Shown here: positions 6,373 to 56,786 of the stretch, piece by piece
Layout: every line of letters starts with the position of its first letter
Numbering within the stretch: position 1 is the first letter of the stretch
Assembly (NCBI RefSeq): GCF_003334355.1
Contig: NZ_QOWP01000008.1
Reading direction: 5' to 3' (one strand)
Source: Escherichia coli
GTDB taxonomy: Bacteria; Pseudomonadota; Gammaproteobacteria; Enterobacterales; Enterobacteriaceae
DNA: 64,000 nt
Notes under the pieces: model-generated
Told to the model about the DNA's origin: nothing
What the model saw: the letters and a program-made list of their open reading frames with translations, nothing else
Databases searched by the model: none
Translations under genes and position numbers: made by a program

Positions 6373-7296
6373 TCACTCATCCCGCGCCGGACGATTTATT
6401 TTTCTGGCGCGGCGACGGGAATCCATTGAAATCAAAATTACCGATGACAGAATCAGCAGCGTTCCCAGCCAGTCCGGTAATGTGAACGTGATCCCCAGCA
6501 ACAGCAAAGAGAGTAGCGCGCTACTTAATGGTTCTGCACAGCTCAAAATGCTGGCTTTTGGACCGCCAATTAATTGTGCTCCTTTCAGGTACAGACTAAA
6601 TGTCAGGGACGTACCAATGACGATCAAATAAAAAAACGCCAAAATCAAACTGCCGTTAACGACAAAGTTTGTCCCTTGTCTGGCATAAAAAGGCAACAGA
6701 ATCAGACCGCCGATCAGCATACTCCAGCCGACGACAGACAACGTGCCATAGCGGGCAATTAGCGTTGAGGGATAGGTGGTATAGAATGCAGCAGCAAATG
6801 CCGAGGCAATGCCCCAGAACAACGCGGCAGGAGAGATCGATAATGACGTCGGATTACCGTGTGTCACCAATAAAAAAGTCCCGACCAGCGATGTCAAAAT
6901 AGCGCAGAAAACCAGAATGCCCGGGCGCGATTTACGCACCAGTGAGAACCAGGCGACGATAATCGTCGGTGAGAGGAATTGCAGCACCGTTGCCGTGGCT
7001 GCGTTCGATTTTTCGATGGTTAGCAAAAAAGTGAGCTGTACAGTTAGCGCGCCAACCACGGAAAAAATCAGCAGGCTAATGGCATCTTTATGATTGTTAA
7101 TAATAGAAAAGATTTTATCGCCATGAACAAATGACAGCGTCAGTAGAATCAAACCGGCGAATATCAAACGCGTCATAGTCAAAAACTGCGACGACATCTG
7201 GCTTTGCTCCATGATGTATTGCGCGCAGACCCCTGAACTTCCCCACAACACGGCGGCAATCAGAACGTTCAGCATCCCCTTTCTGGTGGAACCCAT
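6373..7296 (-). CDS. yicL: EamA/DMT family inner membrane transporter, 307 aa
   Basis: ORF track 307 aa, about 10 TM segments, position between nlpA and setC. Confidence 0.7.
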
Positions 7297-8591: not shown

Positions 8592-9227
8592 TCTTCTGAA
8601 TCACCGGGCGAAAAAATATAACTGAGTTACAAATAAGTACCAGTCGAATGAGTATTGTATTAAGAATTTTTGAGTATCGCTGATACAACCAGAAAGCAAT
8701 GCTAGCGCAATATTATAGGGCCAGCAATTGAGATTATTAGCAAAAGCATGTTAAGAATTAATTACTGAATTTATATATTAATTATAGTAAGGCAATGAGC
8801 TATTTTTGATAGTAAAAATAAAACAAGTTGATTTGATATATTAAATGAACAAATTAATCTTGATGGCAGTCTGATTATTGGTGAAGTTTATAGTCAGTTT
8901 TTTTCGCCAGCGGTTAAAGAAATAGAATAGTCGTATAAAAAAGGGTGTTCTGGGGCGAGTAAAACAACATCTTCACCTTAATGGCGATACAGTTGGCTGA
9001 GAGTCAGCAGGGGGGCAAATCACCTGCAAATAAACACGGCGCATACTGGCGTGAATATCGCGGATGCGTTCGAGGACAGAAGAACCGACAGGCGGATTCT
9101 TCAGCCGCTCATCGTCCATCACAAAACCTTAGACCAGGTATTCCTGAAGCCGATTGAATATTGAGCAGTAGAAAATATCTGGATTGACAGTATTACAAGG
9201 GGTTGGAGAACGTCAGGAGAGGCATTT

Positions 9228-9322
9228 TGGCGGAAGATCACAGGAGTCGAACCTGCCCGGGACCGCTGGCGGCCCCAACTGGATTTGAAGTCCAGCCGCC
9301 TCACCGGAGACGACGATCTTCC
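9228..9322 (-). tRNA. selC: tRNA-Sec (selenocysteine tRNA), 95 nt including CCA
   Basis: Reverse complement of 9228-9322 reads GGAAGATCGTCGTCTCCGGTGAGGCGGCTGGACTTCAAATCCAGTTGGGGCCGCCAGCGGTCCCGGGCAGGTTCGACTCCTGTGATCTTCCGCCA, the recalled E. coli selC sequence. Confidence 0.92.
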
Positions 9323-9614
9323 GCGCCTCGATTGCTACATGGAGGCGGGGCGCATTATAGCTACTTCCTTGAGTTTCTACATCCCCCAGATCAGTTTTTT
9401 CCGCCTAATACACGCAGCGTATTATCACGAAAGCATTATAGTTCATATAAAACCCATATTTTACAATGATATATGAGCGGAATTAACGCTACCACGATCA
9501 CATAAAACAAGAATCATAAATTAATAACCAGATATCGGAATATTCGCTCTCACAGGGATGGTTTACAAAATGCGTTATCGGTCTCAGCACCCCTATAGCA
9601 TCAAGGAAAAGCAG

Positions 9615-24335: not shown

Positions 24336-26670
<2,335 letters not shown>

Positions 26671-26961: not shown

Positions 26962-27786
26962 CTATTTCTTCTCTGTAATTTTTACACTGTTTTCCAACTG
27001 CTTGATGCTGACCTGCGGGGTCGGCAACTCCTCAGGCATGGTTCCGCCAAGTTCCTGAATGGTTTGCCTCACCTTGCGACCCACGTCAAAGTGTGTGGTG
27101 TTTGCTTGCTGTTTTGAATTCACGCCATCCCGCTTGAGTTTTTCTTCTGTTTGGGTAGCTCGAAAGAGATTAGCCGCCAGTTCTGTTGAACCCATATGAT
27201 CCAGGATCTTCTGACTCTTTTTCAGCCCCTTCCGCTGATGGATGGCTTTCTGATCTAATCCACCATACAGCCCCCGGTAACCATGATTCTGAAATATGGC
27301 GAAATCGATAGCTGTCGCTACCCCAGCTTGCTGCGCTGCCTCAACTAATTGTTTGTTATGTTCTTTCAATTCATTTCTCAGAAAAAGACGCTTTTCGTCT
27401 TCACGAAGTTGCCTGAAAGCTTCATCGTCAGCCAGCTCCTGCCGTCGGGTCTGGATAGCAAAATAAGTTTGCCCTGCCGCAATAACCGGTTTCGCAGGGT
27501 CGCCGTTTTGTACTACCAGGTAACAGGCATAGCGGGAGAGATGAACATCTTCAAGTTCTCGTTGAGCCCCTGAACCTAATACAACCATTTTGGTGGTTTC
27601 AACGAAATGGTCAGATGCAGCTTGATTGCTGGCTTCGCACGCTTGAGTCGCGCGGGCAAGTACCTTTTGAAAATTGCGCCAGTCCCGATAATCCAGTAAC
27701 GGTGCCAATTCTCTCGCTGACCAAAATTCTTGCCCTTCAGTGCCATAATGCCGTATTTCTTCAAAAGGTTGATGATGTTCGTTCAT
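26962..27786 (-). CDS. dinD: DNA-damage-inducible protein D, 274 aa
   Basis: ORF 26962..27798; start MNEHHQPFEE; LexA box directly upstream. Confidence 0.7.
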   Translation of the reverse strand: MNEHHQPFEEIRHYGTEGQEFWSARELAPLLDYRDWRNFQKVLARATQACEASNQAASDHFVETTKMVVLGSGAQRELEDVHLSRYACYLVVQNGDPAKPVIAAGQTYFAIQTRRQELADDEAFRQLREDEKRLFLRNELKEHNKQLVEAAQQAGVATAIDFAIFQNHGYRGLYGGLDQKAIHQRKGLKKSQKILDHMGSTELAANLFRATQTEEKLKRDGVNSKQQANTTHFDVGRKVRQTIQELGGTMPEELPTPQVSIKQLENSVKITEKK

Positions 27787-27831
27787 TGCCCACTCCATGT
27801 GATATCGATTGCAAAGAAAGTAAATCTGTAA

Positions 27832-37419: not shown

Positions 37420-38478
37420 GTGGATAAGCCATTTCGAAGAATTTTGCTCATTAAGATGCGTTTTCATGGGGATATGTTATTAACTACTCCCGTCATTAGT
37501 TCGCTGAAAAAAAATTACCCTGACGCAAAAATCGATGTGCTGCTTTATCAGGACACCATCCCGATCCTGTCTGAAAATCCAGAGATTAACGCGCTCTACG
37601 GCATAAAAAATAAAAAAGCAAAAGCCTCAGAAAAAATTGCCAACTTTTTTCATCTCATCAAGGTATTACGTGCCAATAAGTATGACCTTATCGTCAATCT
37701 TACCGATCAATGGATGGTTGCTATACTGGTTCGCTTATTAAATGCCCGTGTGAAAATTTCCCAGGATTATCATCATCGGCAGTCTGCTTTTTGGCGTAAA
37801 AGTTTCACCCATTTGGTGCCGTTGCAGGGTGGAAATGTGGTGGAAAGTAACTTATCCGTGCTGATACCATTGGGACTTGATTCGTTGGTGAAGCAGACAA
37901 CCATGAGTTACCCGCCTGCAAGCTGGAAACGTATGCGTCGCGAACTTGATCACGCTGGTGTTGGACAAAATTATGTGGTTATCCAACCTACGGCGCGGCA
38001 AATCTTCAAATGCTGGGACAACGCCAAGTTTTCCGCTGTGATTGATGCCTTACATGCTCGTGGTTATGAAGTCGTTCTGACGTCCGGCCCAGATAAAGAC
38101 GATCTGGCCTGCGTCAATGAAATTGCGCAGGGATGCCAGACGCCACCAGTAACGGCGCTGGCTGGAAAGGTGACCTTCCCGGAACTTGGTGCGTTAATCG
38201 ATCATGCGCAGCTGTTTATTGGCGTTGATTCCGCACCGGCGCATATTGCCGCTGCAGTTAATACGCCGCTGATATCGCTGTTTGGTGCGACAGACCATAT
38301 TTTCTGGCGTCCCTGGTCAAATAACATGATTCAATTCTGGGCGGGAGATTACCGGGAAATGCCAACGCGCGATCAGCGTGACCGAAATGAGATGTATCTT
38401 TCGGTTATTCCGGCGGCAGATGTCATTGCTGCTGTCGATAAATTACTGCCCTCCTCCACGACAGGTACGTCGTTATGA
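37420..38478 (+). CDS. waaQ: LPS heptosyltransferase III (GT9)
   Basis: ORF track 352 aa; start codon in the track is GTG at 37420 (exact start uncertain); RILLIKMRFHGDMLLTTPVISSLKK heptosyltransferase N-terminus. Confidence 0.8.
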   Translation: MDKPFRRILLIKMRFHGDMLLTTPVISSLKKNYPDAKIDVLLYQDTIPILSENPEINALYGIKNKKAKASEKIANFFHLIKVLRANKYDLIVNLTDQWMVAILVRLLNARVKISQDYHHRQSAFWRKSFTHLVPLQGGNVVESNLSVLIPLGLDSLVKQTTMSYPPASWKRMRRELDHAGVGQNYVVIQPTARQIFKCWDNAKFSAVIDALHARGYEVVLTSGPDKDDLACVNEIAQGCQTPPVTALAGKVTFPELGALIDHAQLFIGVDSAPAHIAAAVNTPLISLFGATDHIFWRPWSNNMIQFWAGDYREMPTRDQRDRNEMYLSVIPAADVIAAVDKLLPSSTTGTSL

Positions 38479-39599
38479 TCGTTGCTTTTTGTTTATATAA
38501 ATATTTTCCCTTTGGCGGTTTGCAGCGCGATTTTATGCGTATTGCTCAGACAGTCGCCGCCCGAGGTCATCATGTTCGGGTTTATACCCAGTCGTGGGAA
38601 GGCGAATGCCCTGATGTATTTGAACTGATCAAAGTACCGGTTAAATCGCATACCAATCACGGGCGCAATGCGGAGTATTTTGCCTGGGTGCAAAAACATT
38701 TACGCGAACATCCCGTCGATAAAGTCGTTGGATTCAACAAAATGCCGGGGCTGGACGTTTATTATGCCGCTGATGTTTGTTATGCCGAGAAAGTAGCGCA
38801 GGAGAAAGGCTTTTTCTATCGCCTGACGTCACGTTATCGCCATTATGCCGCCTTTGAGCGGGCAACCTTCGAACAGGGTAAGCCGACACAGCTGCTGATG
38901 CTGACAGATAAGCAAATCGCCGATTTCCAGAAACATTATCAGACTGAAGCGGAGCGTTTTCATATTCTGCCACCGGGGATTTATCCTGATCGTAAATATA
39001 GCCAGCAGCCAGCCAATAGCCGTGAAATCTTCCGTAAGAAGAATGGAATAACCGAACAACAATATTTATTGTTGCAGGTCGGTTCAGACTTCACGCGTAA
39101 AGGTGTCGATCGTTCCATTGAAGCACTTGCTTCGTTACCGGATTCGCTGCGCCACAACACATTGCTATATGTTGTTGGGCAGGATAAACCGCGAAAATTT
39201 GAGGCACTGGCAGAAAAACGCGGCGTGCGCAGTAATGTTCACTTCTTCTCGGGGCGCAACGATGTCTCGGAATTAATGGCGGCGGCGGATTTATTACTGC
39301 ATCCTGCCTACCAGGAAGCGGCGGGAATTGTGCTGCTGGAAGCGATTACTGCAGGATTACCGGTACTAACAACAGCCGTTTGTGGCTATGCGCATTATAT
39401 TGTCGAGGCCAATTGCGGCGAGGCTATTGTTGAGCCATTCCGCCAGGAAACATTGAATGAGATTTTACGCAAAGCGTTAACGCAATCTTCATTGCGCCAG
39501 GCCTGGGCGGAAAATGCGCGACATTATGCTGATACACAAGATTTATACAGTCTGCCAGAGAAAGCGGCGGATATCATAACGGGTGGTCTGGATGGTTGA
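38475..39599 (+). CDS. waaG: LPS core alpha-1,3-glucosyltransferase I (GT4), 374 aa
   Basis: 374 aa; [24 protein letters not shown]; 4-bp overlap with the waaQ stop. Confidence 0.85.
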
Positions 39600-40389
39600 A
39601 CTTAAAGAGCCGTTTGCCACGTTATGGCGCGGCAAAGATCCTTTTGAGGAAGTTAAAACCTTGCAGGGTGAGGTATTTCGTGAACTGGAAACTCGCCGTA
39701 CTCTGCGCTTTGAAATGGCGGGCAAAAGCTATTTTCTCAAATGGCATCGCGGCACGACCCTGAAAGAGATAATCAAAAATTTACTCTCATTGCGGATGCC
39801 AGTATTAGGCGCTGACCGCGAATGGAATGCGATTCATCGACTGCGGGATGTCGGCGTTGATACTATGTATGGGGTGGCATTTGGCGAAAAAGGCATGAAT
39901 CCGCTGACCAGAACTTCATTTATTATTACCGAAGATCTGACACCAACCATAAGTCTGGAAGATTACTGTGCTGACTGGGCGACTAACCCTCCAGATGTTC
40001 GCGTAAAGCGTATGCTTATTAAGCGTGTCGCGACGATGGTGCGCGATATGCATGCTGCGGGCATTAACCACCGTGACTGTTATATCTGTCATTTCCTGCT
40101 GCACTTGCCTTTTTCCGGTAAGGAAGAGGAGTTAAAAATTTCGGTAATTGACCTGCACCGGGCGCAGCTTCGCACGCGCGTTCCACGTCGTTGGCGGGAT
40201 AAAGATCTTATTGGGCTTTATTTTTCTTCGATGAATATCGACCTGACTCAGCGGGATATCTGGCGGTTTATGAAAGTGTATTTTGCCGCCCCGCTTAAAG
40301 ACATTCTCAAGCAGGAACAAGGACTGCTGTCGCAAGCAGAAGCAAAAGCCACAAAAATCAGGGAAAGAACGATTCGAAAATCGTTGTAA
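39592..40389 (+). CDS. waaP: LPS core heptose(I) kinase, 265 aa
   Basis: ORF 39583..40389; start [21 protein letters not shown]; kinase-like HRDCYICH motif. Confidence 0.85.
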
Positions 40390-40404
40390 TTTCCGGAGAG
40401 AAAT

Positions 40405-41421
40405 ATGAGTGCCCACTATTTTAATCCACAAGAGATGATCACTAAGACAATCATCTTCGATGAAAGGCCAGCGGCGTCAGTGGCATCATCATTCCATGTT
40501 GCTTATGGCATTGATAAAAACTTTCTTTTTGGTTGTGGTGTTTCAATCACGTCAGTTTTGTTACATAACAACGACGTGAGTTTTGTTTTCCACGTTTTTA
40601 TTGATGATATCCCTGAAGCCGATATCCAGCGTTTAGCCCAATTGGCGAAAAGCTATCGTACCTGTATCCAGATCCATCTGGTAAATTGTGAACGGCTTAA
40701 GGCATTACCGACGACCAAAAATTGGTCTATTGCCATGTATTTCCGTTTTGTAATTGCAGATTACTTTATTGATCAACAAGATAAGGTTCTTTACCTGGAT
40801 GCTGATATCGCCTGTCAGGGAAACTTAAAGCCGCTGATAACAATGGATCTTGCCAATAACATTGCTGCTGTTGTTACTGAACGCGATGCTAACTGGTGGT
40901 CGTTACGGGGTCAAAGTCTGCAGTGTAATGAACTTGAAAAGGGTTACTTTAATTCAGGTGTCCTGTTAATTAATACACTAGCGTGGGCGCAGGAGTCCGT
41001 TTCTGCTAAAGCGATGTCGATGCTTGCTGATAAAGCCGTCGTTTCCCGTTTAACCTATATGGATCAAGATATACTTAATCTTATCCTGTCAGGGAAAGTT
41101 AAATTCATTGATGCTAAATACAATACGCAATTTAGTTTAAATTATGAATTAAAAAAATCATTTGTTTGTCCAATTAATGATGAAACCGTATTAATTCATT
41201 ATGTCGGCCCGACAAAACCCTGGCATTACTGGGCCGGTTATCCAAGTGCGCGACCTTTTATCAAAGCCAAAGAGGCATCGCCCTGGAAAAATGAACCGTT
41301 AATGCGGCCAGTTAACTCAAACTATGCTCGTTATTGCGCCAAGCATAATTTTAAACAAAATAAACCAATTAACGGGATAATGAATTATATTTATTATTTT
41401 TATTTAAAGATAATAAAATGA
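40405..41421 (+). CDS. waaO: family-8 LPS alpha-1,3-glucosyltransferase (WaaO/WaaI type), 338 aa
   Basis: GT8 signatures (YGIDKNFLFG, LYLDADI, NSGVLLIN); first outer-core gene after waaP; symbol assigned by position in an R1/R4-type order. Confidence 0.65.
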   Translation: MSAHYFNPQEMITKTIIFDERPAASVASSFHVAYGIDKNFLFGCGVSITSVLLHNNDVSFVFHVFIDDIPEADIQRLAQLAKSYRTCIQIHLVNCERLKALPTTKNWSIAMYFRFVIADYFIDQQDKVLYLDADIACQGNLKPLITMDLANNIAAVVTERDANWWSLRGQSLQCNELEKGYFNSGVLLINTLAWAQESVSAKAMSMLADKAVVSRLTYMDQDILNLILSGKVKFIDAKYNTQFSLNYELKKSFVCPINDETVLIHYVGPTKPWHYWAGYPSARPFIKAKEASPWKNEPLMRPVNSNYARYCAKHNFKQNKPINGIMNYIYYFYLKIIK

Positions 41422-41437
41422 AATTGAGAAAAGTTAA

Positions 41438-42433
41438 ATGAATGAATTTATAAAAGAACGGTTTTCGTATTTAGCAGATAATAAAAAAGAAAACGCCCCA
41501 GAGCTAAATGTTTCCTACGGTATCGATAAGAATTTTTTGTATGGTGCTGGCGTTTCAATTTCTTCCGTTTTGATTAATAATTCAGATATTAATTTTGTCT
41601 TTCATGTTTTCACTGATTATGTGGATGATGATTATTTAAAGTCATTTAATGAAACAGCAAAACAATTTAATACCTCAATTATTGTATATTTAATTGACCC
41701 CAAATACTTTGCTGATCTGCCGACGTCACAGTTTTGGTCGTACGCGACATACTTCAGGGTATTGTCTTTTGAATATCTGAGTGAAAGTATTTCCACACTG
41801 CTGTATCTGGATGCCGATGTTGTTTGTAAAGGAAGCCTGAAACCTCTCACAGAAATTATATTTAAAGATGAGTTTGCTGCGGTCATTCCTGACAATGATA
41901 GTACGCAGGCGGCATGTGCAAAACGCCTCAACATTCCCGAAATGAATGGACGTTATTTCAATGCAGGCGTTATCTATGTCAATCTTAAAAAATGGCATGA
42001 AGCAAATTTGACACCGTATTTACTCAAGCTTTTACGAGGGGAAACTAAATATGGCTCTCTTAAATATTTAGATCAGGATGCGTTGAATATCGCATTTAAT
42101 ATGAATAATATCTACCTCGGGAAGGATTTTGATACTATTTATACCCTGAAAAATGAACTTCATGATCGTAGTCATCGAAAGTTTCAGCAAACCATTACCG
42201 ATAAAACAGTATTGATTCACTATACAGGGATAACTAAACCATGGCATAGCTGGGCTGGATATCCGTCTGCATCATACTTTAATATCGCGCGTGAACAATC
42301 TCCCTGGAAGAAATATCCTCTTAAAGAGGCGCGGACTGTTGCAGAAATGCAGAAACAATATAAGCATCTGTTTGCCCATGGTGAGTATATAAAAGGCATA
42401 ACTTCATTAATTAAGTACAAGCTTAAGAAATAA
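41438..42433 (+). CDS. waaT: family-8 LPS alpha-1,2-glycosyltransferase (WaaT/WaaJ type), 331 aa
   Basis: GT8 signatures (YGIDKNFLYG, LYLDADVVCKGSL, NAGVIYVN); paralogous to the ORF at 43161; symbol by position. Confidence 0.55.
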   Translation: MNEFIKERFSYLADNKKENAPELNVSYGIDKNFLYGAGVSISSVLINNSDINFVFHVFTDYVDDDYLKSFNETAKQFNTSIIVYLIDPKYFADLPTSQFWSYATYFRVLSFEYLSESISTLLYLDADVVCKGSLKPLTEIIFKDEFAAVIPDNDSTQAACAKRLNIPEMNGRYFNAGVIYVNLKKWHEANLTPYLLKLLRGETKYGSLKYLDQDALNIAFNMNNIYLGKDFDTIYTLKNELHDRSHRKFQQTITDKTVLIHYTGITKPWHSWAGYPSASYFNIAREQSPWKKYPLKEARTVAEMQKQYKHLFAHGEYIKGITSLIKYKLKK

Positions 42434-42442
42434 ATTACTCTT

Positions 42443-43135
42443 ATGATTACAAGTATACGTTATCGCGGCTTCTCATTTTATTACAAAGATAATGATAATA
42501 AATATAAAGAAATCTTTGATGAAATACTGGCCTATAATTTTAAAACAGTAAAAGTATTACGTAATATTGATGATACCAAAGTATCGTTGATTGATACGAA
42601 ATATGGTCGCTATGTTTTTAAAGTCTTTGCTCCGAAAACGAAAAGGAATGAACGTTTTTTAAAATCTTTTGTAAAAGGTGACTACTATCAGAATTTGATC
42701 GTTGAAACCGATCGTGTCAGAAGTGCAGGTCTTACTTTTCCTAATGATTTTTATTTTCTGGCTGAGCGTAAAATTTTCAACTATGCCAGTGTTTTTATCA
42801 TGCTTATCGAGTATGTCGAGGGCGTAGAGCTCAATGATATGCCGATTATTCCAGAAAATGTTAAAGCAGAAATTAAGGCTTCAATGGAAAAATTGCATGC
42901 CTTAAATATGCTATCGGGCGACCCACACCGGGGTAATTTTATCGTTAGTAAAGATGGTGTCAGGATAATTGACCTATCCGGTAAAAGCTGTACGGCAGAG
43001 CGTAAAGCTCGTGATCGTCTGGCCATGGAACGTCACCTGGGTATTGCCAACGAAATAAAAGATTATGGCTACTATTCAGTAATCTACAGAACCAAACTAC
43101 GCAAATTTATTAAAAAATTAAAAGGCAAAGCGTAA
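42443..43135 (+). CDS. waaY: LPS core heptose(II) kinase WaaY, 230 aa
   Basis: MITSIRYRGFSFYYKDNDNKYKEIFDEILAYNFKTVKVLRN; kinase-like, AT-rich. Confidence 0.75.
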   Translation: MITSIRYRGFSFYYKDNDNKYKEIFDEILAYNFKTVKVLRNIDDTKVSLIDTKYGRYVFKVFAPKTKRNERFLKSFVKGDYYQNLIVETDRVRSAGLTFPNDFYFLAERKIFNYASVFIMLIEYVEGVELNDMPIIPENVKAEIKASMEKLHALNMLSGDPHRGNFIVSKDGVRIIDLSGKSCTAERKARDRLAMERHLGIANEIKDYGYYSVIYRTKLRKFIKKLKGKA

Positions 43136-43160
43136 ACCACACAGTCAAAACGGAACCAAC

Positions 43161-44189
43161 ATGGATTTATTAGCTGAGAGTATTTCTGAAGTCGCTGTCT
43201 CTGGGGAAATTGCTAACACCGATCGTGTGTTAAATATCGCTTACGGTATTGACCGTAACTTTTTATTTGGTGCGGCAGTATCTATGCAATCAGTTGTTAT
43301 GCATAACCCGGACCTTGCGGTTAAGTTTCATCTCTTTACCGACTACATTGATGAAGATTATCTACAACGTGTTAATGCTTTTACCAGCAAAAATGCTAAC
43401 GTTGAAGTAAGAATTTATAAAGTCTCCAATGCCTTTATTGATATCTTCCCCAGCCTGAAACAGTGGTCTTATGCAACATTCTTCCGTTTAGTTGCGTTCC
43501 AGTATCTGAGTGAAACTATTGAAAATCTGTTATATATCGATGCTGATGTCATCTGTAAAGGCTCATTAGCTGGATTGCTTGATATTAATTTTGATGGGGA
43601 TAAGTTTGCAGCTGTTATTAAAGATGTGCCTTTTATGCAGGAAAAACCAGCGAAGCGTCTGGCTATAGAGGGACTTCCAGGGAATTATTTCAACGCCGGT
43701 GTAGTATATCTGCAGCTTGAAGCATGGGCGAAAAATGATTTTATGAATAAAGCCATTGCTATGCTGGCAAGTGACCCGCAGCACACGAAGTATAAATGCC
43801 TTGATCAGGATATTTTAAATATTCTGTTTTTTGGTCATTGTATTTTTATTAGCGGCGATTATGATTGCTTTTATGGCATCGATTATGAGTTAAAAAATAA
43901 AAGCGATGAAGATTATAAAAAGACCATTACCGATGATACTAAGCTGATTCATTATGTTGGCGTAACGAAGCCCTGGAACGACTGGACGAATTATCCCTGC
44001 CAGAACTATTTTAATGAGGCTTATCAGGCTTCTTGCTGGAATGATGTGGCGTTTATTCCAGCCACGAATGAAAAGCAGTATCAAGTGAAATCCAGACATT
44101 TGAAAAGAAATGGTAATATTGCATCTTCATTTTACTATTTCATGCTCTATTATAGTAAGAAAATAGCGCGTAAGCATTTTTCCAAATAA
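43161..44189 (+). CDS. waaW: family-8 LPS alpha-1,2-glycosyltransferase (WaaW/WaaR type), 342 aa
   Basis: GT8 signatures (YGIDRNFLFG, LYIDADVICKGSL, NAGVVYLQ); clear paralog of 41438..42433; symbol by position. Confidence 0.55.
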   Translation: MDLLAESISEVAVSGEIANTDRVLNIAYGIDRNFLFGAAVSMQSVVMHNPDLAVKFHLFTDYIDEDYLQRVNAFTSKNANVEVRIYKVSNAFIDIFPSLKQWSYATFFRLVAFQYLSETIENLLYIDADVICKGSLAGLLDINFDGDKFAAVIKDVPFMQEKPAKRLAIEGLPGNYFNAGVVYLQLEAWAKNDFMNKAIAMLASDPQHTKYKCLDQDILNILFFGHCIFISGDYDCFYGIDYELKNKSDEDYKKTITDDTKLIHYVGVTKPWNDWTNYPCQNYFNEAYQASCWNDVAFIPATNEKQYQVKSRHLKRNGNIASSFYYFMLYYSKKIARKHFSK

Positions 44190-44220
44190 TTATTAAGATT
44201 AATCATCCAGAGATTTTTTA

Positions 44221-44994
44221 ATGAACTTGCCCATTTATATTGTCTCACTTAAAAGAGATATTGAGCGAAGAAATAAAATAAATGATGTTTTTCATCGATT
44301 AAATATTAATTTTGATTTTTTTGATGCCATAGATGCTAAAGACCCTCAAAATAAAGAAATTATTGATAAAATGAGATTAAGTGGTGTCGGCGCAGAAATG
44401 ACTGATGGAGAAATTGCTTGTACATTAAGTCATCAACTTATATATCAGGATATGATAGATAAAAATATAGAATGGGCAGTCATTCTCGAGGATGATGTTA
44501 TCGTCAATGAGAAATTTAAAAAATTTCTGCAATATTTTAATCTTTCTGAAAAAGACAAGTTAAAACATAATAATTTGTATTTGCTTGGAGGACAGAAAGG
44601 ATTACATGATTATCCGGTATTGGGGCAAAGCCTTTTTAGTAAAGTTAAGGTAAGTACTTGTACTTTTCGGCGTGTTAATTTCAATAAAAATAAAATTCGG
44701 CGTACATGTTCATATTTGATGAATAAAGATATGGCACAAAAGTTGCTCAAATTGACAAAGGATTATGGCACCTATCGAGCTGATAGCTGGAAGTTAATGC
44801 ATCAACATAATATTATAAAAGAGTTTTATTTAGACGAAATAATATTACATCCTATTTTAAATGAGTTTAATAGTCATCTTGAAAGTGAAAGGCTATTAAC
44901 ATCGGAAAAAAAACAACCTAGAACAAGGCTTCAGAAAAGAATGAAGTTTATACGCTCCTGGATAAAGGTGGCTTTTTTTTCTCTTTTGAAATGA
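44221..44994 (+). CDS. family-25 LPS beta-glycosyltransferase (Lic2A/LgtB-like); candidate WaaX-type beta-1,4-galactosyltransferase, 257 aa
   Basis: N-terminal IYIVSLKRDIERR...FDFFDAIDAKDP and downstream ILEDDVIV resemble GT25 (Lic2A/LgtB) proteins; sits at the waaV/waaX position immediately before waaL. Confidence 0.55.
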   Translation: MNLPIYIVSLKRDIERRNKINDVFHRLNINFDFFDAIDAKDPQNKEIIDKMRLSGVGAEMTDGEIACTLSHQLIYQDMIDKNIEWAVILEDDVIVNEKFKKFLQYFNLSEKDKLKHNNLYLLGGQKGLHDYPVLGQSLFSKVKVSTCTFRRVNFNKNKIRRTCSYLMNKDMAQKLLKLTKDYGTYRADSWKLMHQHNIIKEFYLDEIILHPILNEFNSHLESERLLTSEKKQPRTRLQKRMKFIRSWIKVAFFSLLK

Positions 44995-45028
44995 GATTGT
45001 TAATTTCAATTTGTTGTGAGATATTAAC

Positions 45029-46282
45029 GTGGAAGTAAAAATTGAGCAATTTCGAAATAATAGCTGTAATTTTATTTTTTTATTGTATTTAATCGGTTTG
45101 TTGTTTGTGCCAATTGATCTTAATATCACCACTAAAATAATTAATGCGACAGGTGCATTTTCTCTTTTCTTATTAATTGTAAATAAAAAGCATAATTATA
45201 ATAAAAATGTCATTATATTAATTCTTGGTTTACTTCTTTTGGGTGCAATGAACCTGATATGGTATGAATTTTATAAAACAGAAGATGTAGTATATAGAAA
45301 TGCTTATCGAGGCTACCTTGAGTCTGGAAAACTATTAGTATTTAGCTCGTTGACATTTTTATTACTAAGTAAAAATAAATTCAGGCAAAATGAAAAACTA
45401 CATTTTATTTCAGCCATCTTAGTTCAAATAATCATGCTATGTAGAGCATATTATCAAGGGATATATTTGCATGCAGACCGCATTCCCCTCTCCGCCATGA
45501 ATGGGAATATTGGTCAAATGGGGGCAGCGACTATTGCGGCTTATGTGATTACATTCACCACTTTATATTCTTCAATTGTATTCATCAAAATGCAATCGAA
45601 ATATAAATGGTTTCTATTTTATGCTAACTTTGCTTTAAGTTTTGCTGCAGTAACAATGACTGGCACTAGGGCGGCGATTTTTACATTCCCACTAATGATT
45701 ATGGTTATTTTATTAATACAATATCGTAATCAGAGAGTGTTTTTATTTAAAGGATTGAGTGGTTTCTTTTTTTTATTTCTAGTATGCGGATTAATATTCA
45801 ATAAGGGAATTGAAAGACGGATCAACGCATTACAAACAGATGTGATTTCCTATACTACAAAAAATAATAGCAATTCATCAGTAGGTGCGCGGTTTGCTAT
45901 GGTTAATGCAGGTATTAAGGGTAGTCCCGATACTTTAGGATGGCAATCCCTTGAAGAGCGAGCCAAAAAGATAAAAGCTTTAAGTTTAGATAATAATATT
46001 TATAATAGTGTTCTTCCTTTTCTGGATGTACATATGCATAACGAAATTGTGGAATCTCTTTCCACGAAAGGAAAAATTGGTCTTCTTGTTCTTATTATGT
46101 TCTATGTTGCAATGATCTATTACTGTATCCGGGAGAAAAAATATATACTCTTGGTTTTCCCTGCTTCTATTATGTTATTTGGCATTAGTGATGTCATTAC
46201 ACATGCTAAACCAATACCGGCATCGTGGATTGTGTGCCTCTTCCTGTCTACATCGTTTTTGAGTAAAAAAGAACCACAATAA
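45029..46282 (+). CDS. waaL: O-antigen ligase, 417 aa polytopic membrane protein
   Basis: About 10-12 predicted TM helices, very AT-rich, last gene of the waaQ-direction operon; GTG start in track (exact start uncertain). Confidence 0.65.
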   Translation: MEVKIEQFRNNSCNFIFLLYLIGLLFVPIDLNITTKIINATGAFSLFLLIVNKKHNYNKNVIILILGLLLLGAMNLIWYEFYKTEDVVYRNAYRGYLESGKLLVFSSLTFLLLSKNKFRQNEKLHFISAILVQIIMLCRAYYQGIYLHADRIPLSAMNGNIGQMGAATIAAYVITFTTLYSSIVFIKMQSKYKWFLFYANFALSFAAVTMTGTRAAIFTFPLMIMVILLIQYRNQRVFLFKGLSGFFFLFLVCGLIFNKGIERRINALQTDVISYTTKNNSNSSVGARFAMVNAGIKGSPDTLGWQSLEERAKKIKALSLDNNIYNSVLPFLDVHMHNEIVESLSTKGKIGLLVLIMFYVAMIYYCIREKKYILLVFPASIMLFGISDVITHAKPIPASWIVCLFLSTSFLSKKEPQ

Positions 46283-49281: not shown

Positions 49282-49494
49282 AACTGTAACCTTCGAATTA
49301 TGGAGTCAGAGACAATCTCAGACACGAATACTTCTATCATATCACTACACGGCGTTGGCTTCAGCCATTCGCCAAAAGTGAGATTGATGGACGTTATTTA
49401 TCCTGAATTTTGCAGAAGTGTTAACGCGTCATCTCGTCGCGACCTATAAGTTTGGGTAATATGTGCTGGAATTTGCCCTGTCTGGAGAATCGCA

Positions 49495-51726: not shown

Positions 51727-51734
51727 CACGAACA

Positions 51735-51757
51735 AGGGCTGGTATTCCAGCCCTTTT
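51735..51757 (+). terminator. rho-independent terminator of kbl-tdh
   Basis: agggctgg-tatt-ccagccct stem-loop followed by TTT, 8 bp after the tdh stop. Confidence 0.7.
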
Positions 51758-51964
51758 ATCTGAGGATAATCTGTTAAATATGTAAAATCCTGTCAGTGTA
51801 ATAAAGAGTTCGTAATTGTGCTGATCTCTTATATAGCTGCTCTCATTATCTCTCTACCCTGAAGTGACTCTCTCACCTGTAAAAATAATATCTCACAGGC
51901 TTAATAGTTTCTTAATACAAAGCCTGTAAAACGTCAGGATAACTTCAGAGGTCGTCGGTAATTT

Positions 51965-52999
51965 ATGATGAACAGCACCAATAAACTTAGTGTTATTATT
52001 CCGTTATATAATGCGGGCGATGATTTCCGCACTTGTATGGAATCTTTAATTACGCAAACCTGGACTGCTCTGGAAATCATTATTATTAACGATGGTTCAA
52101 CGGATAATTCTGTTGAAATAGCAAAGTATTACGCAGAAAACTATCCGCACGTTCGTTTGTTGCATCAGGCGAATGCTGGCGCATCGGTGGCGCGTAATCG
52201 TGGGATTGAAGTTGCAACGGGCAAATATGTCGCTTTTGTCGATGCTGACGATGAAGTCTATCCCACCATGTACGAAACGCTGATGACCATGGCGTTAGAG
52301 GACGACCTCGACGTGGCGCAGTGCAACGCTGACTGGTGTTTTCGTGAAACGGGAGAAACCTGGCAATCCATCCCCACCGATCGCCTTCGCTCAACCGGCG
52401 TCTTAACCGGCCCGGACTGGCTGCGGATGGGGCTTTCTTCGCGCCGTTGGACTCACGTTGTCTGGATGGGGGTTTATCGCCGTGATGTTATTGTTAAAAA
52501 TAACATTAAATTTATTGCCGGATTACATCATCAGGATATTGTCTGGACAACAGAATTCATGTTTAACGCGCTGCGTGCGCGATATACCGAGCAATCATTA
52601 TATAAATATTATCTGCATAATACGTCAGTGAGTCGGTTGCATAGACAAGGGAATAAAAACCTTAATTATCAACGTCACTATATTAAGATTACCCGCCTGC
52701 TGGAGAAATTAAATCGAAATTATGCCGACAAAATTATGATTTATCCGGAATTTCATCAGCAAATAACTTACGAGGCATTGCGTGTTTGCCATGCGGTGCG
52801 CAAAGAGCCGGATATTCTTACCCGCCAACGGATGATTGCCGAGATATTTACTTCCGGTATGTATAAGCGCCTGATTACCAATGTGCGCAGCGTGAAGGTC
52901 GGTTACCAGGCGTTACTGTGGTCTTTCCGCTTATGGCAATGGCGCGACAAAACGCGGTCGCACCATCGCATTACGCGTAGCGCCTTTAATTTGCGCTAG
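51965..52999 (+). CDS. waaH: family-2 glycosyltransferase (WaaH/YibB type, inner-core glucuronic acid transferase), 344 aa
   Basis: GT2 N-terminus KLSVIIPLYNAGDDF and DADDE motif; AT-rich upstream region. Confidence 0.7.
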   Translation: MMNSTNKLSVIIPLYNAGDDFRTCMESLITQTWTALEIIIINDGSTDNSVEIAKYYAENYPHVRLLHQANAGASVARNRGIEVATGKYVAFVDADDEVYPTMYETLMTMALEDDLDVAQCNADWCFRETGETWQSIPTDRLRSTGVLTGPDWLRMGLSSRRWTHVVWMGVYRRDVIVKNNIKFIAGLHHQDIVWTTEFMFNALRARYTEQSLYKYYLHNTSVSRLHRQGNKNLNYQRHYIKITRLLEKLNRNYADKIMIYPEFHQQITYEALRVCHAVRKEPDILTRQRMIAEIFTSGMYKRLITNVRSVKVGYQALLWSFRLWQWRDKTRSHHRITRSAFNLR

Positions 53000-53945
53000 C
53001 GTTAAACTTCGCCGCTTCGGGCTGTTTGCCCCAGCCTTGCCACTGATGCTGGAAGTAAACGATCAGCGTGCTCTGGCTGATGCTTTCGCTTAATACTTCA
53101 AAGAAGCGATTAGCATAAACAGGTTCTATCGGTTTCTTCGGTTTGCACAGCTTCACGCCACGGAACGGATTACGCGGTGCATCAGGCACAGCGTTTTTCG
53201 GCGGTGTAGAAGTATCAACCTGCGGTTCATTCAGCAAGCTGCTGGCTTTCACCAGCGTAATGTCTGGCGGCAGGTTATAAACCATCTGTTGTAGCACGCG
53301 TACCGTTGAAGGGTGAGGATGCCCAATGGCAATGGTTGAACCGTTGCGACGCGCCAGATCAATTGCGCGATTAAATTGCACACGGATGTCCGCTTCGTTC
53401 TGCGAATCGTCGAGGAACACCTTCCGTTTGATCACCTTCACGCCAGTACCTTGCGCGGCGCGCATCGCCTGGGTATTACCGATGGTTACGCTGTCGAGGA
53501 AGTAAAGATTGTAACGCTCCAGTGCCTGCATCACTTTCTGCATACCAAACAGGTTAGAGGTCATCTTGCTACCCATGTGGTTGTTGATCCCCACGGCATA
53601 GGGCACGTTATTGACCGCACTACGAATAATGCGCTCAATTTCGTCGCTGCTCATCTCCGGGCGCAGCGTATTTTTCTCCAGCGGCTGTTTACTCAGTGGT
53701 GCCATCGGGAGATGAATCAACACTTCGTGCCCGCTGTTATGCGCTTTGGTCGCCATCTCTCTGGCGTGCGGTGAATCGGGTAATACAGCGACGGAGATAG
53801 CGGAGGGCATCGCCAGCACCTGGTTTTCGTTGTGCGGGCGATACCCAAAATCATCAATGACGATGGCAAGTTTGCCAGCAAGTACGGGGGAGGAGAGCGC
53901 CAACAGAGCGGCAAATGCAAGAACGTTACGACGAAATGGAAACAA
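52986..53945 (-). CDS. yibQ: polysaccharide deacetylase-like divergent periplasmic protein YibQ, 319 aa
   Basis: 319 aa with signal peptide MFPFRRNVLAFAALLALSSPVLA; overlaps the waaH 3' end by 14 bp. Confidence 0.7.
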   Translation of the reverse strand: MFPFRRNVLAFAALLALSSPVLAGKLAIVIDDFGYRPHNENQVLAMPSAISVAVLPDSPHAREMATKAHNSGHEVLIHLPMAPLSKQPLEKNTLRPEMSSDEIERIIRSAVNNVPYAVGINNHMGSKMTSNLFGMQKVMQALERYNLYFLDSVTIGNTQAMRAAQGTGVKVIKRKVFLDDSQNEADIRVQFNRAIDLARRNGSTIAIGHPHPSTVRVLQQMVYNLPPDITLVKASSLLNEPQVDTSTPPKNAVPDAPRNPFRGVKLCKPKKPIEPVYANRFFEVLSESISQSTLIVYFQHQWQGWGKQPEAAKFNASAN

Positions 53946-53948
53946 AAC

Positions 53949-55208
53949 TTATCTTCCCAACCACGGCTGTGGATTGACCGCCTGACCCTGGCGGCGAATT
54001 TCGAAATAGAGTGAAGGCCGACCCTGACCGCCACTGCTGCCCACCAGTGCAATTGGCTGGCCCGCGCGAACCTGCGAACCAACGCTCACCAGTGCGCTCT
54101 GATTATAGCCGTAAAGACTCATGTCGCCTTTACCATGCTCAACCACCACCACCAGACCGTAGCCTTGCAGCCAGTCAGCCAGAATCACCCGACCGTCGGC
54201 AATCGCTTTAACTTCAGTACCTTCAGAGGCACCAATCACCATCCCTTTCCAGCGTAATTCACCCTGTAGCTGCTCGCCATAGCGATGCAGCGTCGGCCCG
54301 CGAACCGGCCAGAATGCCTGACCACGCGGCGCACCCAGGCCACCAGTTCGGGACATCAGCGATTTTTCGCTTTCGGTCGGTTTGTAGGTGGTGCCTTTGC
54401 GCGTCGCTTCTTTCTGGCGGTCGCGAACCGCCTGGGCCTCACGTGCTTCTCGTTCTGCACGCGCTTTCGCCGCGGCTTCCGCACGGGCAATGCTGTTACG
54501 CAGACGGGATTCGTTGGCACGCAGTTCACTTAGCTGCTGCTGACCTTGCTGGATGGAAGATTCCAGCCCCGCCAGCGTCTTTTTACGCTCATTCAGAGCC
54601 TGAGTCAGTTTCGCCTGTTGGGCGCGCTGTTCATATAACAGCGTTTGTTGCTCGCTTTGTTTCTCTTCCAGTTCAGCACGCTGCATGGCGACTTCTTCAC
54701 GCGTTTGCTTCAACTGGGCAATGGTTTCTTGTCGCGCCTGGTTGAGATAGCCGAAATAAGCCTGTAAACGCTGTCCACGCTGGCTTTCTTCACCGCTGAG
54801 AATCAGCTGAATACCGGTATGCTCGCCCTGACGGAATGCGGCATCCAGTTGTGCGGCGAGGCTGCGCTCCTGGGCGGCTTTTTGCTGCTCCAGTTTGGCA
54901 ATCGACGCGTTCATCTCATCAATCTGTTTATTGAGTTGATTGAGCGTGTTTTGCGTTTCGCGCAGCTTACGGGTGGCTTCAGAGATCGCTTCTTCCTGCT
55001 TTTTCAATTGTGCGAGCAGGCTTGCGCGTTGTTGTTGCTTTTGGCGTACCGCGCGCTCTTTCGCGGCGATATCGGCCTGAATAGATTTGAGTTGGTCACG
55101 CTCATCCGCATGGGCGGAAAAGGCGCACAACAATACGCCAGCGCTAAGAACGCTGGCGTAGATGATGGGCCTGATTGCAAACCTGCGCGGTTTCACGGCC
55201 CGTGTCAT
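53949..55208 (-). CDS. envC: murein hydrolase activator EnvC (coiled-coil plus LytM domain), 419 aa
   Basis: ORF 53949..55232; start MTRAVKPRRF; long Q/E/A-rich coiled coil then C-terminal peptidase M23-like domain. Confidence 0.85.
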   Translation of the reverse strand: MTRAVKPRRFAIRPIIYASVLSAGVLLCAFSAHADERDQLKSIQADIAAKERAVRQKQQQRASLLAQLKKQEEAISEATRKLRETQNTLNQLNKQIDEMNASIAKLEQQKAAQERSLAAQLDAAFRQGEHTGIQLILSGEESQRGQRLQAYFGYLNQARQETIAQLKQTREEVAMQRAELEEKQSEQQTLLYEQRAQQAKLTQALNERKKTLAGLESSIQQGQQQLSELRANESRLRNSIARAEAAAKARAEREAREAQAVRDRQKEATRKGTTYKPTESEKSLMSRTGGLGAPRGQAFWPVRGPTLHRYGEQLQGELRWKGMVIGASEGTEVKAIADGRVILADWLQGYGLVVVVEHGKGDMSLYGYNQSALVSVGSQVRAGQPIALVGSSGGQGRPSLYFEIRRQGQAVNPQPWLGR

Positions 55209-55241
55209 GGTATTAATCGCCTTTCCCCTCATGGGGAGGGA

Positions 55242-56786
55242 TTATTCCACGATGAACAGCGGCTTACCAGTCATCTCTTGCGGGATTTCCATACCCATCA
55301 GCGACAACATGGTCGGCGCGATGTCAGAAAGTTTGCCGCCTGCAACCGCTTTCACGTTCTTATCACCAACGTAAATCAGCGGAACTGGCAGGTTGGTGTG
55401 TGCCGTGTGTGCCTGACCCGTTGCCGGATCGCGCATCTGTTCAGCGTTACCGTGGTCAGCGGTGATCAGCAGTTGTCCACCCACGGACTCAACCGCTTTC
55501 GCGACTTCTTCCACGCAGTGATCCAGTGCTTCAACCGCTTTAACCGCCGCTTCCATCACCCCGGTGTGACCTACCATGTCACCGTTCGGATAGTTACAGA
55601 TAATGGTGTCGTATTTGCCGCTCTTGATGGCCGCAACCAGTTTTTCGGTCAGCTCTGCGGAGCTCATTTCCGGTTGCAGATCGTAGGTAGCCACTTTCGG
55701 TGAGTTGATCAGAATGCGATCTTCGCCTTTGAACGACTCTTCTACGCCACCGTTGAAGAAGAAAGTAACGTGGGCATATTTTTCGGTTTCGGAAATACGC
55801 AACTGAGTTTTGTCGTTTTTCGCCATCCACTCGCCGAAGGTGTTAACCAGGGAAGCGGGTGGGTAAGCAACCGCAGTTTTGATGTCAGCGGCGTATTCGG
55901 TCAGCATCACGAAATCGACGTTAACCACTTTCTTACGCGCGAAGCCGTCGAAATCTGCGTTTACGAATGCACGAGTGATTTCGCGCGCGCGGTCAGCACG
56001 GAAGTTCATGAAAATCAGCGCATCGCCGTCTTCCATTGCCGCATCTGGCTGACCTTCTGCACGAATAACGGTCGCTTTCACGAACTCGTCGTTTTCGTCG
56101 CGAGCATAAGCTGCCTGCAAACCAGCAACGGCAGTATCGGCCTGGAACTCACCCTGCGCCAGAGTCAGCAGGTCATAGGCTTTTTCAACGCGATCCCAAC
56201 GGTTATCGCGGTCCATCGCGTAGTAACGACCAATGATGGACGCTACGCGGCCTTTACCCAGCGCAGCAAATTTCTCTTCAAATTTTTTCAGCGAGGATTC
56301 AGCACTGCGCGGCGGGGTGTCGCGACCGTCAAGGAATGCGTGCAGGTAGATTTTTTCTGCGCCGCGTTCAGCTGCCAGTTCTACCATCGCCATGATGTGA
56401 TCTTCGTGGCTGTGTACGCCGCCTGCGGAGAGCAGACCCATAATGTGTACTGCTTTACCTGCGTTTTTCGCTTTATCTACCGCGCCAGTCAGCACTGGAT
56501 TAGCAAAGAAAGCGCGATCTTTGATTTCAACGTCCAGACGAGTCAGGTCCTGATACACGATGCGGCCGGCACCCAGGTTAACGTGGCCTACTTCGGAGTT
56601 ACCCATCTGACGGTCAGGCAGACCGACTTCCAGACCGGAAGCGTCGATCAGGGTATGCGGACGATTGGCCCACAGTGCATCCATTACCGGGGTTTTAGCA
56701 CTAAAAATGGCGTTATCCTGCTGTTCTTCACGATAGCCATAGCCATCCAGAATCACCAGTACCATAGGTTTTTTAGAAACCGACAT
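55242..56786 (-). CDS. gpmI: 2,3-bisphosphoglycerate-independent phosphoglycerate mutase, 514 aa
   Basis: ORF 55242..56930; start [19 protein letters not shown] (ATG 56784-56786). Confidence 0.9.

Follow-up and report, generated by a model that had tools for sequence, protein, structure and literature searches.

The DNA analysed here (hereafter the window) is a 64,000-nt stretch of contig NZ_QOWP01000008.1 from the Escherichia coli assembly GCF_003334355.1. Within it, the glycosyltransferase gene waaH converges with yibQ, the last gene of the gpmM-envC-yibQ operon, and the two coding sequences run into each other at their 3' ends. The features of this locus are listed in Table 1.

Table 1. 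Genes, stop codons, hairpins and termination-related features of the waaH-yibQ region (positions are those of the window).
Feature	Position	Strand	Description and basis
kbl-tdh intrinsic terminator	51734..51760	+	Precedes the waaH promoter region; GC-rich stem of 9 bp, -16 kcal/mol, then UUUUAU
waaH (yibD) CDS	51965..52999	+	344 aa; UDP-glucuronate:LPS(HepIII) glycosyltransferase; ORF, NCBIfam, Pfam, RefSeq
Untranslated gpmM-envC-yibQ read-through	52662..52985	-	Antisense to the 3' third of waaH; Rho region of Adams et al. 2021
Hairpin B	52936..52969	-	In yibQ read-through RNA; 13-bp stem; -22.2 kcal/mol (- strand), -15.4 kcal/mol (+ strand)
Hairpin A	52973..53002	both	Imperfect palindrome; 10-bp stem, 9-nt loop; about -13 kcal/mol on either strand
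waaH-yibQ shared segment	52986..52999	both	14 bp; sequence and ORF list
yibQ stop codon	52986..52988	-	TAA (complement of TTA); sequence and ORF list
waaH stop codon	52997..52999	+	TAG; sequence and ORF list
yibQ (sddA) CDS	52986..53945	-	319 aa; divergent polysaccharide deacetylase; last gene of gpmM-envC-yibQ; ORF, Pfam, RefSeq
Weak candidate waaH intrinsic terminator	53172..53198	+	Hairpin ACGCGGUGCAUCAGGCACAGCGU, -10.4 kcal/mol, then UUUUC
envC	53949..55208	-	Upstream in the operon ending with yibQ; RefSeq
gpmM	55242..56786	-	Upstream in the operon ending with yibQ; RefSeq

Real protein-coding genes are present on both strands. WaaH matches the NCBIfam equivalog NF007482 with a score of 633 bits (cut-off 423) over residues 1-334 of 344, and carries a Pfam GT2 domain (residues 9-137). 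YibQ is identified by PF04748 (residues 28-238 of 319) and by published enzymology: the protein, renamed SddA, is a peptidoglycan denuded-strand deacetylase, its gene has been assigned to the envC operon, and its flexible C-terminal region (residues 239-319) is dispensable for activity (bioRxiv 10.1101/2025.02.18.638797). The YibQ tail ends approximately 80 residues beyond the catalytic domain.

Within the shared segment the + strand carries the last WaaH codons (two bases of F341, followed by N342, L343, R344 and the stop), while the - strand encodes that of YibQ (two bases of A316, followed by S317, A318, N319 and the stop). The overlap is in phase (123:132), i.e. codon position 1 faces position 1, 2 faces 3 and 3 faces 2, and the yibQ stop codon is embedded in a TTAA sequence formed by the waaH codons TTT-AAT (Phe341-Asn342). 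In the three frames available to an antisense ORF that runs into the end of waaH, the first stop is met at 4, 14 or 69 nt; for an ORF crossing the end of yibQ on the waaH strand, the three distances are 4, 14 or 108 nt. The 14-bp length carries no information beyond the reading frame, and the overlap is no more than chance would give.

The 14-bp convergent overlap described in the first-pass annotation was confirmed from the sequence, the ORF list and RefSeq. A different true stop of either gene, which would remove the overlap, is excluded, and an annotation artefact of this kind is ruled out: the reading frames fix both stop codons, and these are identical in every genome examined. The overlap is also kept in related bacteria and is therefore no accident of sequencing or annotation.

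Conservation of the junction

The same 14-bp overlap is annotated in RefSeq in the genome of K-12 MG1655 (yibQ 3788101..3789060, waaH 3789047..3790081) and in strains 720632, TW05614, FORC_044, G5 and CFT073 (six genomes including MG1655), and it is retained despite a frameshift in waaH (FORC_044) or truncation of this gene by IS1 (G5). The locus was matched in 5425 of 5426 complete E. coli genomes. A 54-nt query spanning the junction gave matches in 5029 of these 5426 genomes (3022 of them identical), and the 12 matches listed were all ungapped over the full or nearly full query span. Throughout the E. coli strains sampled, the 14 bp do not vary, unlike the neighbouring codons that belong to yibQ only (KF to KL, A to S).

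Short overlaps of this type are not rare. Two of the ten convergent junctions in the window overlap, with spacers of -14 nt (waaH/yibQ) and -4 nt (ligB/yicG); nlpA and yicL are separated by +3 nt, and the remaining junctions by 36 to 168 nt. Lillo and Krakauer put the number of convergent overlaps in E. coli at 58, found that (123:132) is the commonest phase for those of 5 nt or more, and reproduced convergent overlaps with a stop-codon-mutation model (PMC2174442). The waaH-yibQ overlap is real, conserved, ordinary and already present in the reference annotation.

The first-pass annotation had proposed checking the conservation of the overlap in other enterobacteria. A scan with YibQ of one genome per species yielded 80 enterobacterial loci, 31 of which contain waaH convergent to yibQ. 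Among these 31 species, 11, representing seven genera (Escherichia, Salmonella, Citrobacter, Leclercia, Enterobacter, Silvania and Cedecea), have the +14 junction, i.e. the same overlap. Most of the others have a +4 junction (5 species; Kluyvera, Pseudescherichia and one MAG), directly abutting stops (junction 0; 10 species; the C. freundii group and Kluyvera) or a small gap of 6-14 nt (3 species; Kosakonia and Superficieibacter). In the two Pseudocitrobacter species, a REP-like insert lies between the genes and the gap is 72-113 nt.

In all 11 species of the +14 class, the yibQ stop is the antisense of TTAA or TTGA derived from the [LF]-N codons of WaaH, whose tail is conserved across waaH-carrying species as A-[LF]-N-L(-x). 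The ends of YibQ vary (KFNASAN, TINANAD, VSAKTD and others), and in +14 species different ends (..ASAN, ..ANAD, ..ATPG, ..ISEG, ..AKTD) are encoded at these shared positions. In species lacking waaH, YibQ mostly ends a few residues past the conserved WQGW motif, and the slot between tdh and yibQ (in Klebsiella, Raoultella, Lelliottia, Leclercia and others) is usually occupied by a different GT2 gene of 262-275 aa, spaced from yibQ by -4 to +30 nt.

Transcription and termination around the overlap

The earlier claim that the overlap leaves no room for a terminator between the genes proved correct, and no convincing intrinsic terminator is located just inside either gene. A scan for consensus terminators returned sites at chance level only (5 found compared to 3.5 expected). 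A permissive scan for hairpins with U tracts, which recovered the kbl-tdh terminator as a positive control, gave no site in the first 170 nt beyond the yibQ stop; beyond the waaH stop it gave only weak ones, at +84 and +195. Neither scan detected a convincing GC-rich hairpin with an immediate U tract past either stop of the junction.

The best candidate for a waaH terminator, albeit a weak one, is the hairpin at 53172..53198, placed 173-199 nt past the waaH stop within the yibQ codons P-K-N-A-V-P-D-A-P-R. A similar hairpin with a U tract is found in several waaH-carrying species, a distribution that phylogeny and the conserved RNPFRG peptide could explain: the hairpin derives from the codons for A-P-R-N-P-F-R-G, which every species has, and the U tract tracks phylogeny.

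Published data are available for the opposite direction. Adams et al. 2021 (PMC7815308, Supplementary file 2) report a Rho-dependent region, labeled “antisense waaH”, with its best coordinate at K-12 position 3789384 (+), where upstream and downstream reads amount to 106 and 28 without bicyclomycin, compared to 187 and 274 in its presence (Rho score 5.55, p = 1.8e-15). These data are coarse (800-nt windows), were obtained in LB and cover only the yibQ-to-waaH direction. As judged from colinearity with K-12, the coordinate corresponds to approximately position 52662 of the window, 324 nt past the yibQ stop; the yibQ transcript therefore crosses the overlap and proceeds antisense into waaH, which bears out the first-pass prediction that transcription of yibQ must enter its neighbor. 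For 80-nt windows whose first base lies 20-80 nt beyond the yibQ stop, the C/G ratio is 1.1-1.4, and this stretch also contains hairpin B. Another Rho region, with the coordinate 3790042 (-), falls 40 nt inside waaH (approximately position 52004 of the window; PMC7815308) and probably ends upstream read-through while waaH is uninduced. The tables of Adams et al. 2021 consulted here contain no Term-seq 3' end for yibQ or waaH.

Two hairpins adjoin across the junction. In hairpin A, the yibQ stop is placed in the loop and the waaH stop in the 3' arm. Hairpin B is situated 17-50 nt past the yibQ stop, within the waaH codons Q-W-R-D-K-T-R-S-H-H-R, and is followed by CAUAAGCGG. Neither has a U tract. 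The 131-nt junction region folds better than shuffled sequences on the - strand (z = -2.9); the value for the + strand is -1.7. Although 67% of the cells are paired in a 19-species alignment, covariation (0.137) is at the level expected from shuffled alignments (0.132), and conserved structure was rejected for both hairpins; the core of hairpin B is kept in most species without compensatory changes. RNAalifold predicted no pairs in a consensus structure of the 19 species, and no Rfam family matched the junction. The sole Rfam match between 51000 and 55500, to the speF leader inside envC, scored 21.5 bits against a gathering score of 37 and was taken as a chance hit.

Comparison between species, with a terminator defined as a hairpin at or below -12 kcal/mol accompanied by a U tract, identified such sites up to 150 nt past the yibQ stop in 3 of 31 loci with waaH and in 24 of 48 without it, counts which ignore kinship. 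In Klebsiella and Lelliottia, the final 11-15 codons of the alternative glycosyltransferase gene contain this hairpin.

The waaH gene is nearly silent in rich medium. In O157:H7 it is upregulated 46- to 80-fold upon pst deletion or in low phosphate (bioRxiv 10.1101/536201). In K-12 under low phosphate, the part of the RNA-seq data of PMC10294691 covered here shows a 4.3-fold PhoB-dependent difference (approximately 12,700 normalised reads in the wild type compared to approximately 3,000 in the phoB deletion strain), and in the same comparison envC changes by log2 -0.4 (q = 0.19). No PhoB ChIP peak at waaH was found in K-12, despite this PhoB dependence.

Origin of the overlap and its possible roles

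The arrangement is very probably a neutral by-product, i.e. a tail-to-tail overlap of two unrelated genes that lack a spacer, for which regulatory coupling is unnecessary. In most enterobacteria, the tdh-yibQ slot holds a glycosyltransferase gene abutting yibQ. The C-terminal tail of YibQ following WQGW seems to be poorly constrained, such that its stop may be lost or shifted, and the position of the yibQ stop codon would therefore wander. In the Escherichia/Salmonella/Citrobacter type, the yibQ frame extends 14 nt into waaH, as far as the first in-frame stop. This stop, the TAA within the TTAA of the conserved Leu/Phe-Asn codons of WaaH, is probably held by selection on WaaH, and its location in these conserved codons would account for the persistence of the 14-bp form in seven genera. 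Since there is no intergenic terminator, termination would take place inside the partner gene. In the case of the gpmM-envC-yibQ transcript, which is constitutive, untranslated RNA is exposed once ribosomes leave at the yibQ stop, and the published bicyclomycin data show that Rho then ends transcription within approximately 300 nt, in the antisense of the 3' third of waaH. The waaH transcript presumably ends by the action of Rho and/or at the weak hairpin with a U tract approximately 195 nt into yibQ. One observation counts against the neutral reading, namely the better-than-shuffled folding of the junction on the yibQ strand (z = -2.9). In addition, the persistence of exactly 14 bp in seven genera, and of the junction where waaH is a pseudogene, could also reflect selection.

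In its features the pair resembles short prokaryotic convergent overlaps produced by loss or shift of a stop codon: the genes lie on opposite strands, share a few 3' codons in phase (123:132), and overlap by the distance to the first in-frame stop, as one of approximately 58 such E. coli pairs (PMC2174442). There is no material difference from this class; the exact 14-bp form of waaH-yibQ is retained across seven genera. The end of the yibQ transcript is like Rho-dependent termination past stop codons, with a bicyclomycin-sensitive drop in coverage approximately 324 nt on and no intrinsic terminator; the C/G enrichment past the stop, as sought for a rut region, is mild (1.1-1.4).

The first-pass annotation had suggested antisense interference between waaH and the yibQ operon. 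Such cis-antisense coupling, in which phosphate-starvation transcription of waaH would lower yibQ-envC expression through polymerase collision or RNase III cleavage of a duplex, would tie LPS core remodelling to septal peptidoglycan processing in the manner of mscL/arfA or an excludon. It is feasible mechanistically and consistent with the lack of a separating terminator, with the strong induction of waaH (46- to 80-fold, 10.1101/536201; approximately 12,700 normalised reads at low phosphate) and with the conservation of the tight junction across species, and it has an E. coli precedent: mscL and arfA form 3' overlapping transcripts subject to RNase III-dependent antisense control (PMC10070815). 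Like waaH and yibQ, these genes are convergent, without an effective terminator between them, and one of the two is stress-induced. However, envC was not significantly changed in the one RNA-seq dataset, its small difference accompanying a 4.3-fold difference in waaH. Moreover, Rho curtails read-through from yibQ, which reaches only about the final third of waaH. Convergent genes that overlap or nearly touch are also common, making up 3 of the 10 convergent junctions in the window. In genera without waaH, the slot is filled by another glycosyltransferase gene with an embedded intrinsic terminator; read-through is therefore not conserved. A literature search found no paper linking waaH with yibQ. 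The suggested interference is thus not supported by these results; regulatory interference between waaH and the yibQ operon is unlikely, and this form of coupling is an improbable explanation of the overlap. A stronger version, in which a terminator-less junction would have been selected in waaH carriers, with waaH induction tuning sddA-envC and Rho gating the silencing of waaH by yibQ read-through, is very improbable. If it were true, waaH-driven polymerases entering sddA-envC would couple septal peptidoglycan processing with phosphate-starvation LPS core remodelling, and Rho would set the reach of the constitutive yibQ read-through that silences waaH.

The remaining alternatives assign a role to the junction itself. 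It might act as a collision-type bidirectional terminator, whose hairpins (52936-53002) pause the polymerases so that head-on and trailing collisions end both transcripts. The adjoining hairpins A and B, with their z of -2.9 on the - strand, fit this model, which requires, between two convergent genes, a hairpin that lacks the canonical U tract (bioRxiv 10.1101/2022.10.23.513370), and the junction is in this respect similar to the overlapping bidirectional terminators detected by SEnd-seq. That class is described as Rho-independent, yet read-through from yibQ is bicyclomycin-sensitive and ends approximately 300 nt further, well past both hairpins. The absence of covariation and of an RNAalifold consensus, together with the lack of a Term-seq end in the consulted tables, also speaks against it, and collisions would be rare in rich medium because waaH is nearly silent there; such a terminator is quite improbable. 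The overlap might instead be kept because Prc, the periplasmic tail-specific protease, recognises the last residues of YibQ, which the shared bases encode. The level of SddA is indeed raised in a prc mutant, the protein accumulating upon prc deletion, and an AlphaFold3 model predicts KFNASAN in the Prc active site (bioRxiv 10.1101/2025.02.18.638797). On the other hand, C-terminally FLAG-tagged SddA also rose in the prc deletion strain, as did the N-tagged protein, and the cleavage sites are unknown according to the authors of that study (10.1101/2025.02.18.638797). The ends of YibQ differ widely at the same 14-bp overlap (..SAN, ..NAD, ..TPG, ..SEG, ..KTD), and species with a 0 or +4 junction have a far shorter tail. 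It is hardly conceivable that Prc recognition maintains the overlap.

As one among dozens of short convergent overlaps in E. coli, the waaH-yibQ junction has little biological weight. It is of practical relevance in strain engineering, since tagging or deletion at the 3' end of waaH or yibQ changes the last four codons of the other gene, and a cassette placed at the junction also alters termination of the gpmM-envC-yibQ transcript. In the Keio deletion design, the last few codons of the deleted gene are reportedly kept, so that the 14 bp would remain undisturbed. The comparison across genera illustrates how a stop codon wandering in an unconstrained tail may give rise to a stable overlap on reaching the conserved codons of a neighbor, and how, once the spacer is lost, termination may shift to Rho or to a hairpin within the coding tail of the neighboring gene.

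Gene content of the surrounding region

The waa core cluster of this strain differs from that of K-12 and comprises waaO, two GT8 genes, rfaY, a GT25 gene and an O-antigen ligase gene, a composition reminiscent of the R1 core type. Furthermore, the window lacks htrL, the gene that in K-12 lies in the kbl-rfaD gap, and this gap is here just 213 bp long. The tRNA-Sec gene is adjoined by a fragment of a rhuM pseudogene, apparently what is left of an island at this tRNA locus. The dinD gene is frameshifted, according to the annotation of the identical RefSeq strain.

Coding sequences of envC and yibQ

The longest ORF of envC starts with an ATG at 55232 (minus strand) and encodes 427 aa, compared to 419 aa from the RefSeq start at 55208 (minus strand). 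The shorter form is used in the SddA paper (bioRxiv 10.1101/2025.02.18.638797); the difference is one of start-codon choice only. Inside the envC coding sequence, the Rfam model of the speF leader gives a match below threshold (E = 0.02; 21.5 bits, where the gathering score is 37), most likely due to chance.

Within the otherwise variable linker of YibQ, the motif RNPFRG is conserved (yibQ codons A-P-R-N-P-F-R-G). Its coding sequence is self-complementary (CGCCGCG..CGCGGCG), and a 7-bp hairpin can be formed from these codons on either strand in nearly all of the 80 enterobacterial species compared (one genome each), with waaH present or absent.

Convergent junctions with and without waaH

Besides waaH/yibQ and the likewise very tight ligB/yicG and nlpA/yicL junctions (see table), the remaining seven convergent pairs of the window have spacers of 36-168 nt, and a GC-rich hairpin is obvious at most of these wider-spaced pairs.

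A second Rho-dependent region, mapped at K-12 position 3790042 (minus strand; window approximately 52004, plus strand), lies 40 nt into the waaH ORF and has a Rho score of 5.77 (Adams et al. 2021, PMC7815308). Transcription entering waaH appears to be cut off early in rich medium. Some E. coli strains carry waaH as a pseudogene; in FORC_044 and G5, both yibQ and the 14-bp waaH/yibQ overlap are nevertheless intact.

Coordinates of the described features (L-numbers denote yibQ-region loci of other genomes, in their own coordinates; all other positions refer to the window)
Feature	Position	Detail
nlpA/yicL convergent junction	6374-6376	3-bp spacer
rhuM pseudogene fragment	8992-9326	
ligB/yicG convergent junction	26057-26060	4-bp overlap
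dinD	26965-27787	
waa core cluster	37420-46282	
kbl-rfaD gap	49282-49494	
RNPFRG motif codons	53150-53195	
speF leader match	55046-55158 (-)	
waaH pseudogene, FORC_044	L084 466-1501	1-bp frameshift
waaH pseudogene, G5	L085 2248-3114	IS1 truncation; last 114 nt remain
Embedded hairpin and U tract, K. pneumoniae	L070 3401-3445	
Embedded hairpin and U tract, Lelliottia nimipressuralis	L021 4957-4995	

In genera without waaH, yibQ is adjoined by a different GT2 gene, encoding 262-275 aa, at a spacing of -4 to +30 nt. The last 11-15 codons of this gene contain a strong hairpin followed by a U tract in the yibQ direction (-16 to -25 kcal/mol). Since this structure is located inside the coding end of the GT2 gene, one sequence there plays two roles, those of terminator and coding tail.
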